From the sequence record PV245933.1: a stretch of 39,625 nucleotides of DNA; one strand, given 5' to 3'. Positions 1,630 through 39,625 of the stretch are shown in pieces. Position numbers and translations under genes: made by a program. Every line of letters starts with the position of its first letter. Within the stretch, counting starts at the first letter, position 1. Under the pieces are notes generated by a model. It saw nothing but the letters and a program-made list of their open reading frames with translations. It searched no databases and was not told where the DNA came from. The stretch comes from Escherichia phage nasanit.

Positions 1630-3387
1630 ATGTCTACTCAAGCAAACAAGAATGCGCTCATCGTGGCGCAACTTAAGGGTGACTTCGTGGCCTTCCTGTT
1701 CGTCTTATGGAAGGCTCTGAACTTACCTAAACCAACCAAGTGTCAGATTGATATGGCACGTACACTCGCTAATGGCGACCACAAGAAGTTTATCCTACAG
1801 GCGTTCCGTGGTATCGGCAAGTCCTTTATCACCTGTGCGTTCGTCGTGTGGGTCTTATGGCGTGACCCTCAACTTAAGGTGCTCATCGTGTCTGCCTCTA
1901 AGGAACGTGCTGATGCTAACTCCATCTTCATCAAGAACATCATCGACCTCCTTCCGTTCCTCTCTGAGTTGAAACCTCGACCGGGACAGCGAGACTCCGT
2001 GATTAGCTTCGACGTTGGCTTGGCGAAACCAGACCACTCACCCTCTGTGAAGTCTGTAGGCATTACTGGTCAGTTGACTGGTAGCCGTGCTGACATTATC
2101 ATCGCAGATGACGTTGAGGTTCCCGGCAACAGTTCTACAAGCTCTGCTCGTGAGAAGCTGTGGACACTGGTAACTGAGTTTGCTGCGTTACTTAAGCCGT
2201 TACCTACCTCTCGTGTTATCTACCTTGGGACACCTCAAACCGAGATGACTCTCTATAAGGAACTTGAGGATAACAAAGGGTACAGCACGGTAATCTGGCC
2301 AGCACAGTATCCACGTAATGATGCTGAGGCTCTCTACTATGGGGACCGCTTGGCTCCGATGCTTAAGGCTGAATACGATGAGGGCTATGAGTTACTTCGT
2401 GGTCAACCTACTGACCCTGTTCGATTCGATATGGATGACCTCCGTGAACGTGAACTCGAATATGGCAAAGCTGGCTACACTCTTCAGTTCATGCTTAACC
2501 CGAACCTTAGTGATGCCGAGAAGTACCCGCTACGGCTCCGTGACGCTATCGTGTGCGCTGTGGACCCCGAACGTGCCCCATTGTCTTACCAGTGGTTGCC
2601 GAACCGTCAGAACCGCAATGAGGAACTCCCTAACGTTGGTCTTAAGGGTGATGACATCCATGCGTTCCATACGTGCTCTTCTCGTACCGCTGAGTATCAG
2701 TCTAAGATTCTGGTCATTGACCCAAGTGGTCGTGGTAAGGATGAGACCGGGTACGCAGTCCTCTACTCACTTAACGGTTATATCTACTTGATGGAAGTCG
2801 GTGGGTTCCGTGGTGGTTACGATGATGCTACCCTAGAGAAGCTCGCTAAGAAGGCCAAGCAGTGGAAGGTACAGACAGTCGTCCATGAGTCCAACTTCGG
2901 TGACGGTATGTTCGGTAAGATTTTCTCTCCGATTCTCCTGAAGCACCATAAGTGTGCCTTAGAGGAAATCCGTGCTAAGGGCATGAAGGAGATGCGAATC
3001 TGCGATACTATCGAACCGTTGATGGGTGCGCACAAGCTGGTAATTCGTGATGAGGTTATTCGTGAGGACTACCAGACTGCTCGTGACCTTGATGGGAAAC
3101 ATGATGTTCGCTATAGTGCGTTCTATCAGATGACCCGTATGACCCGTGAGCGAGGCGCTGTGGCACACGATGACCGACTTGATGCTATCGCATTGGGTAT
3201 CGAATGGCTACGCGAGGGGATGCTTGTAGACAGCCGTGTAGGTGAAGAAGAGATGACCCTTGAGTTCCTTGAACACCACATGGAGAAACAGACCATTGGT
3301 GGCGACCAGATTCATAGCTATGATGTAGGAGGTGTGGACATCTACTATGAGGACGATGGGGACTCTAGCAGCTTCATTGAGTGGTAA
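1630..3387 (+). CDS. 19: Terminase large subunit (DNA maturation protein B), gp19
   Basis: 585 aa; Walker A-like AFRGIGKSF; strong overall similarity to T7 gp19 (T7 is 586 aa). Confidence 0.95.
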
Positions 3388-33678: not shown

Positions 33679-36600
33679 GTGGATAAGTATAACCCGAACG
33701 AACCGCATGAATATGATGCGTTATTTCAACAAGCTGCTGACACACATGGAGTCTCCTATGGCCTTCTTCGGAAGGTCGGTTGGGTAGAGTCCCGCTTTAA
33801 ACCTACGGCTCAATCACCAACAGGGCCGAGAGGTGTCATGCAGTTCACTAAGGCAACTGGTCAGGCTTATGGTCTCCAGAACGATGAGGACTTCACTGAC
33901 CCGGCTAAGTCCATTGATGCAGGTGCTCGTTACCTCGCAGACCTCGTTAAGAAGTACGATGGCGATGAACTTAAAGCTGCCCTAGCGTACAACCAAGGTG
34001 AAGGGCGTAATGGTAAGCCACAACTGGAAGCCTACGATTCTGGTAACTTTGCTGGCATCGGTGATGAAGGTCGTAACTATCTGCGTTCACTTCTGGATGT
34101 CGCTAAGTCTCCTAAGAGTGGGGACATTGAGTCATTCGGAGGTATCACCCCAAAGGCTAAAGGGATTCCGTTTGATGCTGCGATGAGTGGTATCGGGAAG
34201 AAAGGAAAGGTAACAACTGAACTCCCTGAGTCTCACGAAATGTCCTTTCAAGGTAAAGAACAGGCCGCTCCCAATCAGCCGTTCGGAAAAGATTATTGGG
34301 AAGCCAAAGGTACAACTCTTGACGAAGCAAACGAGCGTTCAACCTTCTTCGGATTTGGTAATGCTGCCGAAGCAGAACTCTCTAACTCAACCTTGGGTGT
34401 TGCCTTCCGTGCTGGTAAGCGTGACAATGGTTTCGATGTTCTTACTGACGTACTTCAGCCGACACGGTTTAATAGCCACATTTGGTCGCCTGAAGAACTC
34501 GAAAAGATTCGCAACGAAGTGAAGAACCCTGCGTACATGAACGTTGTACTTGGTGGTTCCGCTGAGAACCTTGACGAGCTAATCAAGTTAGCCAATGAGA
34601 ACTTCGAGTTGGACTCTAAGGCCGCTGATGCTGGACTTGGTGCAAAACTATCTGCTGGGATTATTGGTGCTGGTGTGGACCCTCTGACCTACGTTCCAAT
34701 CGCTGGGTCTGCGGCTAAGGGATTCAAACTGGTGAACAAGGCGTTGATGGTGGGTGCTCAAGCTGGTGCACTTAACGTTGCCTCCGAGGGTCTGCGTACA
34801 TCCGTTGCTGGTGGTGATGCTCACTATGCGGAAGCTGCTCTTGCTGGTATGCTGCTTGCTGGGGGACTCACTGCGGTTGCTGATGGTGTTGCTGCTGGTC
34901 TCCGTAAGTCTGGTGCTGAACAGATTGAGAACCCGTTTGCTGCTGCGCAGATGCGTTTTGAGGCTCGTGAGACTGCCCGTAACACTGGTGGATATGATGC
35001 AAGTCGTATGCCTCCGAGTGAAGACCGAGTGTTCTCACAGCACAACGGCGTTGAGTATGCACCTCTCGAAACTGAACCGGGTGCGGTAGTTCTGAAGGAC
35101 GGCTCAATCATTAGTGATACCAACTTGGCTAACCCAATGACTGCCAAAGAGTTTGCCGAAGTAGACCCTGAACGTGCTGCATGGGGCTTGCCTATGCGTG
35201 GCCTGAGTGAAATCGGTTTGAGAACTCTACGTTCTGAACATGCAGAAATCCGTGGACTAGCTAAGGACTTAGTGCGCTCACCTACAGGTATGGAGTCTGG
35301 CTCACATGGTAAGTTTGGGGCTACCGCCTCAGACATCAAAGAGCGCCTACACAGTAACAACCAGCGAACCTACAATGACCTCTATGGTGCAATGAAGGAA
35401 GCTATGGCTGACCCTGAGTGGTCTGTGGGTATGTTCAAGCAGGGTGCCCAAGGTGCTCGTCAGGAAATCTATCGTCGTGTTGCAATCGCTATTGAGCGTC
35501 CAGAACTTCAGGCCAACTTAACGAAGGCTGAACGTAAGGTAATGGACATCATGAAGGAACATTTCGACCTCAAGCGTGAGATGATGGAGAACCCGTCGAT
35601 GTTCGGCAACAAGGCAACTTCCATCTTCCCTAACAGTCGTCACAAAGGGACTTACGTTCCTCATGTGTACTCACGGGAAGCCAAGCAGTTGTACTCACAG
35701 GCTCTCGGTGGCTCTGATGGTTTACAGGAAGCAATCGCTGCAAGCTGGATGACCTCTTACCGTTCACGTCCAGAAGTTAAGACTCGTGTGGATGAGCATT
35801 TAGCGGAGACATTAGGTATCGACCCTAAAGCTGTTACCGAAGAGATGGTGATGAAACATGCCAGCGACAAGGCTTATGGTATTGCGAAGACAGATGAGTT
35901 CAACTCTTCAAGTGTCATCGACGATAACATTGAGGGTCTGGTAGGGATTGAGAATAACTCGTTCCTTGAAGCCCGTAACCTGTTCGATTCTGACATGCCA
36001 GTCACGCTCCCGAATGGACAACAGTTCTCTGTGAATGACCTCCGAGACTTCGATATGAAGCATGTGATGCCAGCATATGACCGCCGTGTTGACGGTGATA
36101 TTGCTATCATGGGTGGTACAGGAAAGACGACTGCTGAACTCAAGGATTACATTATGGCTCTCGATAAGAAGTCTGAAGGTAAAGGCACAATGAAAGGTGA
36201 AGTGGAAGCACTCAAGGATACCGTTAAGATTCTCACAGGCCGTGCTCGACGCAATCAGGATACTATGGGTGACACTATGGTCCGCGCTATGTCCGATATG
36301 TCCTTCTTTACGAAGAACGCATATATGGGCTTGCAGAACCTAACTGAAATCTCTGGTCTCTTGGCGAAAGGTAACACCCGTGCGATGCTTCATGGCATTC
36401 CCGCTCTGCGTGACCTAGCATTCCGCAACAAGCCAGTGTCCGGTAAGGAACTTAAGGAACTACACTCTATGGTGTTCGGTAAAGAGTTCGATGACTTAAT
36501 TAGACCGACCCGTCAGGACATCATTCAGCGACTCCGTGAATCTACGGATACACCTGATGTTGCCGCTAAGGTTGTTGGTACGGTTAAGCACACCACTCAA

Positions 36601-37626
36601 GAGTTGGCTGCTCGCTCTCCGTTCACTAAGTTCCTCAATGGTACTTCCAACTACATTCTGGACATGGCCCGTCAAGGTGTCATGGGAGATGTGGTAACTC
36701 ATGCCATTACTGGTAAGGGTGCCAACAAGTGGATTAAAGGAGACATGCTGAAATCTGCGAGTATCTCTAAGGAACAATGGGAAGGCATTCAGAACCTCAT
36801 CCGCGAGAACGTCACTCAAGGCGCTGACGGCAAGTACACCTTCAAGGACAAGCGCAAGCTGGCTAATGACCCTCGTGCTATGGACTTGTGGCGCTTAGCT
36901 GATAAGGTTGCCGATGAGACAATGCTGAGACCTCACAAGGTTTCACTTCAGGATTCCCATGCGTTTGGTGCTGCTGCCAAGCTGGTGCTTCAGTTTAAGT
37001 CGTTTGTCATCAAGTCGATGAACTCTAAGTTTATCCGCTCTGGTCACGAGGCTATGAAGAATCACCGAGCTATGGACATGGCGCTGACCTACGCAATCTC
37101 TGGAGGTATCGCTGGTTCCTACTACGTGGCACAGGCCCACTTGAAGGCTGCTGGTCTACCTAAAGAGCAACAGAAGGACTACTTGAAGAAAGCTCTGGAC
37201 CCTAAGATGATTGCCTATGCTGCTGCGTCCCGAAGTTCACACTTAGGTTCCCCGTTGAGTATCGCAAACTTCGCTATGGGTGCTGCTGGTTACGACCAAG
37301 GTCTCATGGTCCGCTCTACTATTCTCCCGAAAGGTGAGGACAAGCGGGAACGGAATAAGGCGGTAACTTCCCGTGACATGAGTGAATCCATTATGGGTGC
37401 TATTGGTGAACAGGTTCCTGCTCTTGGCTTCGCGGGTGCTGCTCTAGCTACTGGTCGAAATGCTTATGGTGTCCTTACGGCTCCAAACAAAGTGACCGAG
37501 CGTGAGATGATGACTGGCTTAATGAACGCCCACCGAGAGATGATTCCTAACGACCCAATCTCTCAACAGATGCTCATTAAGTTCTATGAGGCCAACGGTG
37601 TTCACATTAAGGCTGACAAGAAGTAA
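33679..37626 (+). CDS. 16: Internal virion protein D with N-terminal lytic transglycosylase domain, gp16
   Basis: 1315 aa; apparent GTG start after AGGAGG SD; SLT-like motif GWVESRF..GVMQFTKATG..AYNQGEG. Confidence 0.95.
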   Translation: MDKYNPNEPHEYDALFQQAADTHGVSYGLLRKVGWVESRFKPTAQSPTGPRGVMQFTKATGQAYGLQNDEDFTDPAKSIDAGARYLADLVKKYDGDELKAALAYNQGEGRNGKPQLEAYDSGNFAGIGDEGRNYLRSLLDVAKSPKSGDIESFGGITPKAKGIPFDAAMSGIGKKGKVTTELPESHEMSFQGKEQAAPNQPFGKDYWEAKGTTLDEANERSTFFGFGNAAEAELSNSTLGVAFRAGKRDNGFDVLTDVLQPTRFNSHIWSPEELEKIRNEVKNPAYMNVVLGGSAENLDELIKLANENFELDSKAADAGLGAKLSAGIIGAGVDPLTYVPIAGSAAKGFKLVNKALMVGAQAGALNVASEGLRTSVAGGDAHYAEAALAGMLLAGGLTAVADGVAAGLRKSGAEQIENPFAAAQMRFEARETARNTGGYDASRMPPSEDRVFSQHNGVEYAPLETEPGAVVLKDGSIISDTNLANPMTAKEFAEVDPERAAWGLPMRGLSEIGLRTLRSEHAEIRGLAKDLVRSPTGMESGSHGKFGATASDIKERLHSNNQRTYNDLYGAMKEAMADPEWSVGMFKQGAQGARQEIYRRVAIAIERPELQANLTKAERKVMDIMKEHFDLKREMMENPSMFGNKATSIFPNSRHKGTYVPHVYSREAKQLYSQALGGSDGLQEAIAASWMTSYRSRPEVKTRVDEHLAETLGIDPKAVTEEMVMKHASDKAYGIAKTDEFNSSSVIDDNIEGLVGIENNSFLEARNLFDSDMPVTLPNGQQFSVNDLRDFDMKHVMPAYDRRVDGDIAIMGGTGKTTAELKDYIMALDKKSEGKGTMKGEVEALKDTVKILTGRARRNQDTMGDTMVRAMSDMSFFTKNAYMGLQNLTEISGLLAKGNTRAMLHGIPALRDLAFRNKPVSGKELKELHSMVFGKEFDDLIRPTRQDIIQRLRESTDTPDVAAKVVGTVKHTTQELAARSPFTKFLNGTSNYILDMARQGVMGDVVTHAITGKGANKWIKGDMLKSASISKEQWEGIQNLIRENVTQGADGKYTFKDKRKLANDPRAMDLWRLADKVADETMLRPHKVSLQDSHAFGAAAKLVLQFKSFVIKSMNSKFIRSGHEAMKNHRAMDMALTYAISGGIAGSYYVAQAHLKAAGLPKEQQKDYLKKALDPKMIAYAAASRSSHLGSPLSIANFAMGAAGYDQGLMVRSTILPKGEDKRERNKAVTSRDMSESIMGAIGEQVPALGFAGAALATGRNAYGVLTAPNKVTEREMMTGLMNAHREMIPNDPISQQMLIKFYEANGVHIKADKK

Positions 37627-37649
37627 ACAATACGACTCACTATTGGGAA
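37627..37649 (+). promoter_or_regulatory. Phage RNAP promoter (phi17 position)
   Basis: CAATACGACTCACTATTGGGAAG followed by 5' hairpin GGGAAGG..CTTCCC. Confidence 0.8.
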
Positions 37650-37696
37650 GGCTCACATAGCTTCCCTCTATTTACCTAACCGAAAGGAGGCTACAG

Positions 37697-39625
37697 ATGG
37701 CTAACAAAATTTCCACTGTGCGTACTTACCCACTTAATGGTGCCGTGAACTTCACAATCACCTTTGAGTATCTGGCCCGTAAGTTCGTGCAAGTAACCCT
37801 AATTGGTAAAGACCGTAAGGAACTGGTTCTCAATCAGGACTACCGCTTTACCTCTAAGACGCAAATCACAACATCTCGTACTTGGACTGCCGCAGATGGC
37901 TACCAGATGATTGAGATTCGTCGATTCACTTCAGCTACTGACCGTCTGGTTGACTTTGCTGATGGCTCTATTCTTCGTGCGTATGACCTGAACATCTCAC
38001 AGATTCAGACGCTGCACGTTGCTGAGGAAGCACGAGACCTCACTGCTGATACTATTGGTGTCAACAACGATGGTCACTTAGATGCCCGTGGTCGTAAGAT
38101 TGTGAACCTTGCGTTCGCTACCAATGACTATGATGCGGTCCCTCTGAAGCAGATTAAAGAGCGTGAGTCCTCTGCGTGGAGTGCTGTTACTAAGGCAAAC
38201 GAACATGCTGACCGTTCTAATCGAGAGGCTAATCGTTCTCGTGATGAGGCTAACCGTGCTCAACGTGAAGCTGACCGTTCAACTCAACAGGCAGGTATCT
38301 CTACGGCACAAGCGGTTGAGTCCAAGAAGCAAGCTGACCGTTCCAACTCTGAGGCTAACCGTGCTAAAGGTTATGCTGATAGTATGACCGCAAGTGTCGC
38401 TGAGGCCAAGAAGCAAGCTGACCGTTCCAACTCTGAGGCCAATCGTGCCCGTGATGAGGCCAATCGTGCTGCCGGAGAAGTGACTAAAGCTGCTGCTGAG
38501 GTTGCCAAGGCTGCTGCACATGTGGCTACAGCTAAGGGACATGCTGACCGAGCCAACACTGAGGCCAACCGCTCCAAGAGTGAAGCCGACCGTGCAAAGA
38601 CCGAGGCCGATAAGTTGGGGAACATGAATGACCTAGCAGGGACCATTGAGAGCATTGGAAGTAATGGTAAGGACATTAACTTCAAGGGAGGCGTTAATGG
38701 TAACACAATTCTTGCTAAGAACTCTGTACACGCTGGGGTTCAACCAAACACTGCGTTCTTCAGTGATAACACACTACGTCTTCGCAACCGTGACCACAAG
38801 GAACGCGCTTGGGACATCTTTGTTTGGGGTAATGATTCTGGACGGGGCAACGTACTGGAGTTCGGAACTAACTACGGTAAAGGGTATGGGATGTACTTGC
38901 AGTTTGCTAATGGTGACTCACAAGATTCCCAACTTCAGGTTAATGGTGCAATTGCAGCTAAGACAGATATTTATGGACGGGGCATCACAGCAAATGGGGA
39001 ATTAATTACCCGATCACAAAACCTTAAGCTGATTAACTCTGCTCGTCGACATATTCAGTTCATGACTGCCGATAACTACACCGATGGTTATCTCTATAAA
39101 GACCCCGGTGCTGGTGCGTGGAGACTTAACTTTGGTCATGCAGCTAACATGGAGTATACGTTTGCTTCAAACGGTCACTTGACATCTAACTCAGGGTGGA
39201 ACATCCCACCAGATGGTAACCTATATATCAAGAAGTACGGAATGTACATTGATGCTTGGGTCAACAAGCGTCTGTCCGAACATGCCTACAACAAGGGTGA
39301 AGTTAACAACTTGGTCAACGGTCGCCTCACTGCTGGTCAAGGTGATGGTCGCTATGTCCGCAAGAACGCTGGGTGGGCTGAGGTCTGGAAAGGCTCTGCT
39401 GGTGGTGGTGTCTCTGTAGGTCTCTCTCAAGATGTCCGCTGGAGAACCATCTGGATTCAAACACAAGGTCGTTGGAACCCTGTTCAAATTGGGGACAATG
39501 GGGCTTACTATATCTCGTCTATGGGTGGGTGGTTGCAGTTCACCATCTCTAATAACGGTAGGACGTTCCGTAACGATGCAGACAGAGCTTCTGTTCCTAC
39601 GAGAATCTTGGTTCAAACCCAATAA
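37697..39625 (+). CDS. 17: Tail fiber protein, gp17
   Basis: 642 aa; N-terminal tail-attachment domain MANKISTVRTYPLNG..FEYLARKFV..DGSILRAYDLN and C-terminal block GWAEVWKGSAGGGVSV..WIQTQ conserved with T7; repeat-expanded shaft; ends at last base of window. Confidence 0.93.
   Translation: MANKISTVRTYPLNGAVNFTITFEYLARKFVQVTLIGKDRKELVLNQDYRFTSKTQITTSRTWTAADGYQMIEIRRFTSATDRLVDFADGSILRAYDLNISQIQTLHVAEEARDLTADTIGVNNDGHLDARGRKIVNLAFATNDYDAVPLKQIKERESSAWSAVTKANEHADRSNREANRSRDEANRAQREADRSTQQAGISTAQAVESKKQADRSNSEANRAKGYADSMTASVAEAKKQADRSNSEANRARDEANRAAGEVTKAAAEVAKAAAHVATAKGHADRANTEANRSKSEADRAKTEADKLGNMNDLAGTIESIGSNGKDINFKGGVNGNTILAKNSVHAGVQPNTAFFSDNTLRLRNRDHKERAWDIFVWGNDSGRGNVLEFGTNYGKGYGMYLQFANGDSQDSQLQVNGAIAAKTDIYGRGITANGELITRSQNLKLINSARRHIQFMTADNYTDGYLYKDPGAGAWRLNFGHAANMEYTFASNGHLTSNSGWNIPPDGNLYIKKYGMYIDAWVNKRLSEHAYNKGEVNNLVNGRLTAGQGDGRYVRKNAGWAEVWKGSAGGGVSVGLSQDVRWRTIWIQTQGRWNPVQIGDNGAYYISSMGGWLQFTISNNGRTFRNDADRASVPTRILVQTQ
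38207..38610 (+). repeat. In-frame tandem repeats within tail fiber shaft (ADRSN-x-EANR units)
   Basis: About 34-bp direct repeat AAGAAGCAAGCTGACCGTTCCAACTCTGAGGC at 38328 and 38403, plus degenerate copies; protein motif ADRSN(R/S)EANR(S/A) repeated 4-5 times. Confidence 0.6.

Follow-up and report, generated by a model that had tools for sequence, protein, structure and literature searches.

Gene 17 of Escherichia phage nasanit and its relation to known tail fibres of the BSP161/285P type

Gene 17 and the modules of its product

The window analyzed here is the whole 39,625-nucleotide (nt) stretch of sequence record PV245933.1, from Escherichia phage nasanit, and its last base is the final base of the stop codon of gene 17, an open reading frame (ORF) at 37697-39625 that encodes a tail fibre protein (gp17) of 642 amino acids (aa). 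This is a gp17 tail fibre of the known BSP161/285P type, and an ordinary one: BSP161 gp17 and the PYps49T and PYps50T fibres are 94% and 91% identical to the nasanit protein over its full length and without gaps, and 285P Gp17 is 90% identical over its full length. The protein has both the EA(N/D)R-type shaft with the motif ADKL at residue 304 that distinguishes a Berlinvirus-type gp17 and the C-terminal β-sandwich tip of the T7 group. The exact nasanit protein is absent from a 15-billion-sequence collection. Very probably the gene is gene 17 of a Berlinvirus, encoding a homotrimeric side tail fibre of five modules with a mosaic history; trimer formation, binding to the lipopolysaccharide core, and which of the modules sets host range are points that we infer. 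The gene and its parts, all on the plus strand, are as follows.

37697-39625, plus strand: gene 17, tail fibre protein, 642 aa and stop (ATG ORF with full-length relatives in BSP161 and 285P)
37697-38158, plus strand: N-terminal tail-attachment domain, aa 1-154 (Pfam PF03906)
38186-38647, plus strand: predicted coiled-coil shaft, aa 164-317, 21-22 unbroken heptads (heptad layout)
38322-38355, plus strand: 34-base-pair (bp) exact repeat, copy 1, within the four-heptad unit aa 206-233
38406-38439, plus strand: 34-bp exact repeat, copy 2, within the four-heptad unit aa 234-261
38585-38665, plus strand: conserved junction, ADRAKTEADKLGNMNDLAGTIESIGSN, aa 297-323, putative module-exchange point (motif ADRA..EADKLGNxNxLAG)
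38666-39154, plus strand: variable module, putative distal shaft and pyramid, aa 324-486, BSP161/PYPS50 type (identity by module)
39155-39373, plus strand: pre-tip module, aa 487-559, conserved across the genus Berlinvirus (per-module identity)
39374-39622, plus strand: β-sandwich tip domain, aa 560-642, presumed receptor-binding domain

An earlier reading of this DNA, made from the letters alone (the sequence-only reading), had described a fibre about 90 residues longer than T7 gp17 and T7-like at both ends, and on these points it was right. The difference is 89 residues (642 versus 553 aa). At the N terminus, PF03906 covers aa 1-154 with an E value of 5.5e-49 and 166 bits (cut-off 25.2), and phmmer matches this domain to the solved N terminus of T7 gp17 in 7BOZ and 8E4G (E 1e-94 for the whole chain); identity over the domain is 71% to T7, 94-100% to Berlinvirus fibres, 83% to PcCB251, and 75% to JeanTinguely. 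At the other end, the last 100 residues or so are also T7-like: aa 552-641 match T7 gp17 chain 4A0T with an E value of 6.7e-23, aa 542-641 match T7 residues 452-552 in phmmer, and the tip proper (aa 560-642) is 53% identical to T7, 70-96% to Berlinvirus fibres, and 49% to PcCB251.

Comparison with known fibres places the protein closely. BSP161 gp17 (ATW58399.1) and the PYPS50/PYps49T/PYps50T fibres have the same length of 642 residues, the same five modules, and the same genomic context. 285P Gp17 (ACV32488.1; 643 aa, one residue longer) is 97-99% identical in N-domain and shaft, 78% in the variable module, and 81% in the pre-tip. T7 gp17 (NP_042005.1; 4A0T, 4A0U, 7BOZ) shares gene position, promoter type, and, by the comparisons below, domain order (N-domain, coiled coil, β-rich distal shaft and pyramid, tip). 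The gp17 proteins of BA14, ETEP21B, and PhiV-1 (655 aa) and of Yepe2, Berlin, and Yep-phi (569 aa) share the junction and every module except the variable one (79-100% in N-domain and shaft, 63-81% in the pre-tip, 70-96% in the tip), whereas the variable module is 21-22% identical in the BA14 group and, in the Yepe2 group, much shorter, with about 73 aligned residues at 7%. The architecture itself is already published. Hammerl et al. described the first 320 aa of the PYps49T/PYps50T fibres as very similar to those of Yersinia pestis phages, the next ~180 aa as divergent, with repetitive sequences near the transition, and the C-terminal receptor-binding part as similar again (PMC8762354), and a published model of the ETEP21B fibre comprises an adaptor, a coiled coil, a pyramid region (26.6% to T7), two extra helices, and a tip (52%) (PMC11267873).

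The coiled-coil shaft and its length

The shaft carries Ala or Val at position a of every heptad and a small residue (Ala, Ser, Met, or Leu) at position d, without a stutter. The sequence-only reading had seen tandem in-frame repeats of the form ADRSN-x-EANR in this region. The motif is indeed present, at aa 171, 213, and 241 and as the variant ADRANTEANR at aa 283, but what look like repeats are, by their register, the heptads of a coiled-coil shaft: the unbroken seven-residue periodicity, together with a spacing of all DNA repeat families in the shaft by multiples of 21 nt, constitutes the signature of such a shaft. A classical tandem array was considered and rejected, because Tandem Repeats Finder reports no more than 3.1 copies, imperfect at 70% match, of a 21-nt unit (38546-38610). 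T7 gp17 likewise has a coiled coil after its N-domain, with which the nasanit heptads align, but the heptad type differs (EA[ND]R in nasanit, FRNEAE in T7). Identity over aa 155-310 is 24% to T7, 79-98% to Berlinvirus fibres, and 64% to PcCB251.

The longest repeat in the gene is an exact 34-bp direct repeat (CCAAGAAGCAAGCTGACCGTTCCAACTCTGAGGC), far beyond chance expectation, with both copies in frame. The sequence-only reading had recognized it correctly but had placed its copies at 38328 and 38403, whereas they start at 38322 and 38406. The resulting offset of 84 nt equals four heptads in the same frame, and the repeat is the core of an internal four-heptad duplication (aa 206-233 and aa 234-261), whose two 84-nt units are identical at 60 of 84 positions overall. 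The duplication is also found in the independent genomes of BA14, ETEP21B, BSP161, P483, and JeanTinguely. Both 34-bp copies lie within a 225-nt segment (38297-38521; gene nt 601-825) that is 94-100% identical in DNA to BSP161, 285P, JeanTinguely, PZJ0206, BA14, ETEP21B, PhiV-1, P483, and Carena, whereas on either side of it the shaft DNA reaches just 75-90% identity to most of those phages. In BSP161, copy 1 encodes AAEAKKQ, as copy 2 does, and the exact run is 42 nt. These features of the segment hint at its recent spread, or at gene conversion between the copies.

Compared with the shafts of T7 and T3, that of nasanit has a net excess of 42 residues, or six heptads. An α-helix rises 0.15 nm per residue, so that the extra residues would lengthen the rod by ~6 nm. 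The sequence-only reading had further proposed that the repeats drive a length polymorphism, and this proposal did not survive comparison. Shaft indels number 0 among the 14 Berlinvirus-type proteins in an alignment of 16 fibres, and the same shaft length recurs in 20 Berlinvirus-type proteins, metagenomic homologues included. ADKL stands at residue 304 in nasanit, BSP161, PYps50T, 285P, PZJ0206, BA14, ETEP21B, PhiV-1, P483, Carena, Yepe2, and SEqdws-315; an additional residue in the N-domain shifts it to 305 in JeanTinguely and PcCB251, and T7 and T3 have it at 263. At the DNA level, a megablast search with the shaft returned 70 phage records with coverage of 80% or more, and among the records listed, those covering at least 92% each align as one ungapped piece with equal query and record spans. 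Where shaft lengths do differ, the shafts are wholly different sequences (the T7/T3 type, the Kvp1 type, and a third type). A change in repeat copy number, as would mark a contingency locus, occurs in none of the 20 proteins or the listed phage records. The 42-residue excess over T7 is thus, on these alignments, a fixed trait of the lineage and not a polymorphism.

Only one record, that of the more distant fibre of CICC 80001 (KM242061.1, 5-302), hinted at a shaft differing in length by a heptad unit. Its shaft is 77% identical over query nt 182-500 and its span is 21 nt shorter, equivalent to one heptad; the record is cut at its end.

Distal half, tip, and receptor binding

At the end of the shaft lies the motif ADRA..EADKLGNxNxLAG, which is kept in all shaft types, those of T7 and T3 included, and beyond that the module in which fibres of this group differ most. 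The variable module of nasanit is 91-94% identical to those of BSP161 and PYps50T and 78-79% to those of 285P, JeanTinguely, and PZJ0206, versus 7-25% for other Berlinvirus fibres and 12% for T7; a tblastn search of aa 330-560 against 50,697 phage records agrees with these per-module identities. The search strategy mattered here: a single-sequence search with aa 311-642 returned only five proteins and missed the closest relatives, so that a profile search was needed. An exhaustive search of representative sequences with aa 313-560 gave seven matches at E<=1e-3, mostly fibres sharing the pre-tip motif, and no functional lead.

The sequence-only reading had noted that residues ~330-560 do not resemble T7, and at the level of direct alignment this holds: phmmer gives no alignment to T7 over aa 348-541, where identity is 12-14%. 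PF20744, the pyramid domain, which matches T7 with an E value of 1.6e-40, is unmatched in the nasanit fibre at E<=10. More sensitive comparisons do connect the two proteins. Profile-profile alignment with hhalign pairs aa 377-528 with T7 residues 312-461 at 94.9% probability, and Foldseek aligns ~230 columns of the structure model to the whole of 4A0T/4A0U. Together, these comparisons suggest that aa 324-486 are a very divergent homologue of T7 residues ~312-447, that is, of the distal shaft and pyramid. In the model the module is β-rich, with predicted local distance difference test (pLDDT) values of 60-80, and the fold matches that follow T7 gp17 are β-structures of fibres and baseplates and generic single-layer β-sheets. 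The possibility that the divergent region holds a depolymerase or hydrolase domain was considered and rejected, as the region has no Pfam match and its fold matches are of the kinds just named.

Between the variable module and the tip, nasanit and its relatives carry a segment that T7 and T3 lack. The stretch that separates the ADKL junction from the tip spans 256 residues in nasanit versus 207 in T7, a difference of 49, and a 27-residue block immediately before the tip (SEHAYNKGEVNNLVNGRLTAGQGDGRY), a helical linker, falls in a gap in T7 and T3. The pre-tip sequence (WVNKRL..EHAYNK..NNLVNGRLT..GDGRY) is present in 13 of the 13 aligned Berlinvirus-type fibres at 63-96% identity, whereas identity to T7 over the module is 14%. 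In the model, which is that of a monomer, low-confidence helices span aa 516-528 and 546-549; the two additional helices reported for the ETEP21B fibre, both short, occupy the same pre-tip position (PMC11267873).

What these modules imply for receptor recognition can be judged from T7, in which a deep mutational scan mapped the receptor-contacting surface of gp17 to the tip, chiefly to the exterior loops BC, DE, FG, and HI, with G479, N501, D520, D540, and R542 as key positions (PMC8043750). By analogy, the T7-like last 80-100 residues of the nasanit fibre are likely the receptor-binding domain. Tip residues that are intolerant of substitution in T7 are largely kept (11 of 11 in the hydrophobic core, 4 of 4 glycines, and 3 of 5 in salt bridges), and the specificity positions are changed: the DE loop is one residue shorter through deletion of N501, D520 is replaced by M609, and S541/R542 by R630/A631. 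The most variable columns among 14 Berlinvirus-type tips are 590, 609, 614, 628, and 631, of which 590, 609, 628, and 631 lie in or adjoin the positions of the T7 DE, FG, and HI loops.

A further change involves the T7 salt-bridge pair R508/D512, both of which are substitution-intolerant in T7. The corresponding residues are Q597/N601 in nasanit (39485-39499), and across Berlinvirus tips these positions hold Q, E, or P together with N or D, a pattern suggesting that the two residues, at the interface of tip and shaft, changed together.

The sequence-only reading had placed a different receptor specificity, of lipopolysaccharide (LPS) type, in the divergent stretch. Because the exterior loops of the tip differ from those of T7, a receptor specificity somewhat unlike that of T7 is plausible, as is normal for the family; the location does not stand, since the tip is conserved and, by the alignments above, the flagged region appears to be the distal shaft and pyramid part and not the tip. 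As to the receptor itself, ETEP21B depends on waaC, an LPS core gene (PMC11267873), all Autographiviridae of the BASEL collection, JeanTinguely included, depend on the LPS core (PMC8594841), and recombinant 285P Gp17 binds Escherichia coli cells and not Klebsiella or Staphylococcus (PMC9202026). By analogy with these phages, the nasanit tip may bind the LPS core.

Mosaic origin, genomic setting, and competing explanations

Sliding comparison of the DNA indicates that the gene combines sequences of different affinity. Over gene nt 1-830 it is 97-98% identical to 285P and ETEP21B, over nt ~900-1350 it is 96-99% identical to BSP161 and PYps50T, and over the last 580 nt it is 73-92% identical to any of the 12 fibre genes compared, with breakpoints near nt 830-900 and at about nt 1350. 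N-domain and shaft DNA is 80-92% identical to BSP161, lower than to 285P and ETEP21B. Many Berlinvirus genomes (BA14, ETEP21B, Yepe2, and others) match the gene only as far as nt ~935-955, which is the junction. This common end point, together with two chimeric fibres, JeanTinguely and P0038, marks EADKLGNxNxLAG as a natural exchange point, and nasanit gene 17 is a new recombinant allele of known parts.

In P0038, a metagenomic protein of 605 aa, the shaft is of Berlinvirus type and continues, from the ADKLGN junction on, into a distal half of T7 type. JeanTinguely, a Teseptimavirus (MZ501081.1, 1011-2942), joins a T7-type N-domain, with T7-like residues throughout, to a Berlinvirus-type shaft and a distal half of the BSP161/285P type; this phage also has a Berlinvirus-like gp1.2 allele (BASEL paper, PMC8594841). 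A third protein, P0017 (641 aa), is a fibre 66% identical in its distal half. It is annotated as hypothetical protein LI086_22130 in an E. coli assembly, where its 12-kb contig is probably phage DNA among bacterial sequences.

The remainder of the window agrees with this assignment. Upstream of gene 17 lies the gene for gp16, a 1315-aa ORF at 33679-37626 with a T7-type gp16 lytic-transglycosylase N terminus, and downstream, across the circular join, lies a 68-aa, holin-sized ORF. The order gp16-gp17-holin behind a promoter is the same in BSP161, 285P, and T7. ORFs of 68, 89, 147, 185, and 585 aa follow one another in the first 3.4 kb with sizes and order as in relatives, and Berlinvirus genomes, among them Carena, CarlSpitteler, P483, PZJ0206, and 285P, match the first 25 kb at 92-95% identity. 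The 39,625-nt sequence thus represents the complete genome of a T7-like Berlinvirus in circularly permuted form, opened directly after the gene 17 stop codon and with the terminal repeat presumably collapsed. Neighbouring features are listed below; those of the first 3.4 kb were assigned by their size and order in relatives.

37628-37650, plus strand: phi17 promoter for the phage RNA polymerase, 23 nt, CAATACGACTCACTATTGGGAAG (base-for-base alignment with the annotated phi17 promoters of Yepe2 and BA14)
37684-37690, plus strand: Shine-Dalgarno sequence AAGGAGG, 6 nt 5' of the ATG (sequence reading)
45-251: gp17.5 (holin)
244-513: gp18
612-1055: gp18.5
1057-1614: 185-aa ORF, unknown gene
1630-3387: gp19

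The core of the promoter matches T7 phi17, and the strong Shine-Dalgarno sequence is unchanged in an alignment with five relatives. A leader hairpin, GGGAAG...CTTCCC, lies 3' of the promoter within 37628-37666, and Yepe2 has GGGGAG...CTCCCC at the same site, a compensatory change; the stability of the leader fold is not above that of shuffled sequence (z -0.64), and the hairpin is hence not claimed as a part of the locus. ORFs wholly inside gene 17 occur, for example, on the minus strand (38371-38706 and 39221-39622) and on the plus strand (38646-39005), and the records of relatives annotate no genes at these positions.

Collectively, our comparisons favor a model in which the N-terminal domain (aa 1-154) would dock the fibre to the tail, the shaft (aa ~164-317) would form a three-stranded coiled coil with an Ala/Val core and a length fixed across the genus, and a β-rich distal shaft and pyramid module (aa 324-486), existing in several interchangeable versions, would be followed by the genus-conserved pre-tip module (aa 487-559) with its helical linker. 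The tip (aa 560-642) would be a T7-type β-sandwich that touches the host with its exterior loops, LPS core sugars being the most likely target, and the allele would have formed by module exchange at the EADKLGNxNxLAG junction. Several points weigh against this model. Neither PF20744 nor PF12604, which in the reference T7 gp17 cover the pyramid/trimerization region (aa 371-464) and the tip (aa 465-553), matches the nasanit fibre even at E<=10, although T7 gp17 matches both; a Pfam scan of aa 155-642 at that threshold gave only low-complexity coiled-coil noise (Mitofilin, Borrelia_P83), and membership of the distal half in the family depends on pairwise, profile, and fold evidence, not on Pfam. 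The profiles aligned by hhalign are shallow (effective sequence number, Neff, about 1.4-2.1). The structure model is that of a monomer of a trimeric protein, with a mean pLDDT of 71.9, a predicted template modelling score (pTM) of 0.36, and values below 50 over aa 515-557. Finally, LPS-core dependence is extrapolated to nasanit from other phages, whose fibres are 78-83% (JeanTinguely) and 21% (ETEP21B) identical in the variable module.

In the view of the sequence-only reading, the shaft would be an expanding and contracting tandem array that produces length polymorphism, and aa 330-560 would form a novel receptor-binding region with a new LPS specificity. We consider this very unlikely. In its favor, the 42 residues in excess of T7 make up complete heptads, and the exact 34-bp core shared by two 84-nt units could permit unequal recombination with the heptad phase kept; the CICC 80001 shaft and the phmmer result for aa 348-541 fit the idea as well. 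Against it, length variants are absent among the 20 Berlinvirus-type fibres and the listed phage records with the nasanit-type shaft, the 84-nt units have diverged to 60/84 around their core, and differing shaft lengths belong to different shaft types, never to copy-number variants. Moreover, the divergent region appears homologous to the T7 distal shaft and pyramid, while the T7 receptor surface maps to the tip loops (PMC8043750), and the fibre shows the full-length near-identity to characterized members of the T7 group, 94% to BSP161 gp17 and 90% to the E. coli-binding 285P Gp17 (PMC9202026), that the reading itself had named as grounds for its refutation. An assembly artefact as the source of the shaft repeats is almost certainly wrong: short-read assemblers can collapse or duplicate repeats and the nasanit sequence is a circularized assembly, but the duplicated unit occupies the same position and frame in at least 11 independently sequenced phages, and the ORF is uninterrupted and aligns collinearly, with no gaps, to those of its relatives. 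It was rejected on the presence of the duplication in independent genomes.

A different question is whether the variable module (aa 324-486) provides a second, lateral receptor-binding site alongside the tip, so that the module and not the tip sets a polyvalent host range. The module is swapped between otherwise near-identical fibres (7-25% identity versus 82-96% in the tip for most), and phages with the nasanit-type module come from Salmonella, Yersinia pseudotuberculosis, E. coli, and Enterobacter. Polyvalence is reported for PYps49T and PYps50T (PMC8762354), and for ETEP21B a second binding region was proposed in the pyramid part from computed interface propensities (PMC11267873). Even so, we regard this arrangement as unlikely. 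A compound version, in which aa 324-486 form a second receptor surface setting cross-genus host range and the 225-nt repeat segment, homogenized by gene conversion, serves as a landing pad for recombination, seems to us slightly less likely still. The five-module fibre with a receptor-binding tip is the explanation that we prefer.

The gene can thus be confidently annotated as tail fibre gp17 of the BSP161/285P type, and the finding has little meaning beyond annotation. The module boundaries are of use in fibre engineering: swaps could naturally be made at the junction (aa 297-323) and where the pre-tip module begins (aa ~487), and to retune host range one would turn first to tip loop positions 590, 609, 628, and 630-631. 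The analysis also illustrates that reading by eye can mistake a heptad coiled coil for "repeat expansion", and that receptor binding need not reside in whichever part of a T7-type fibre has diverged most from T7.

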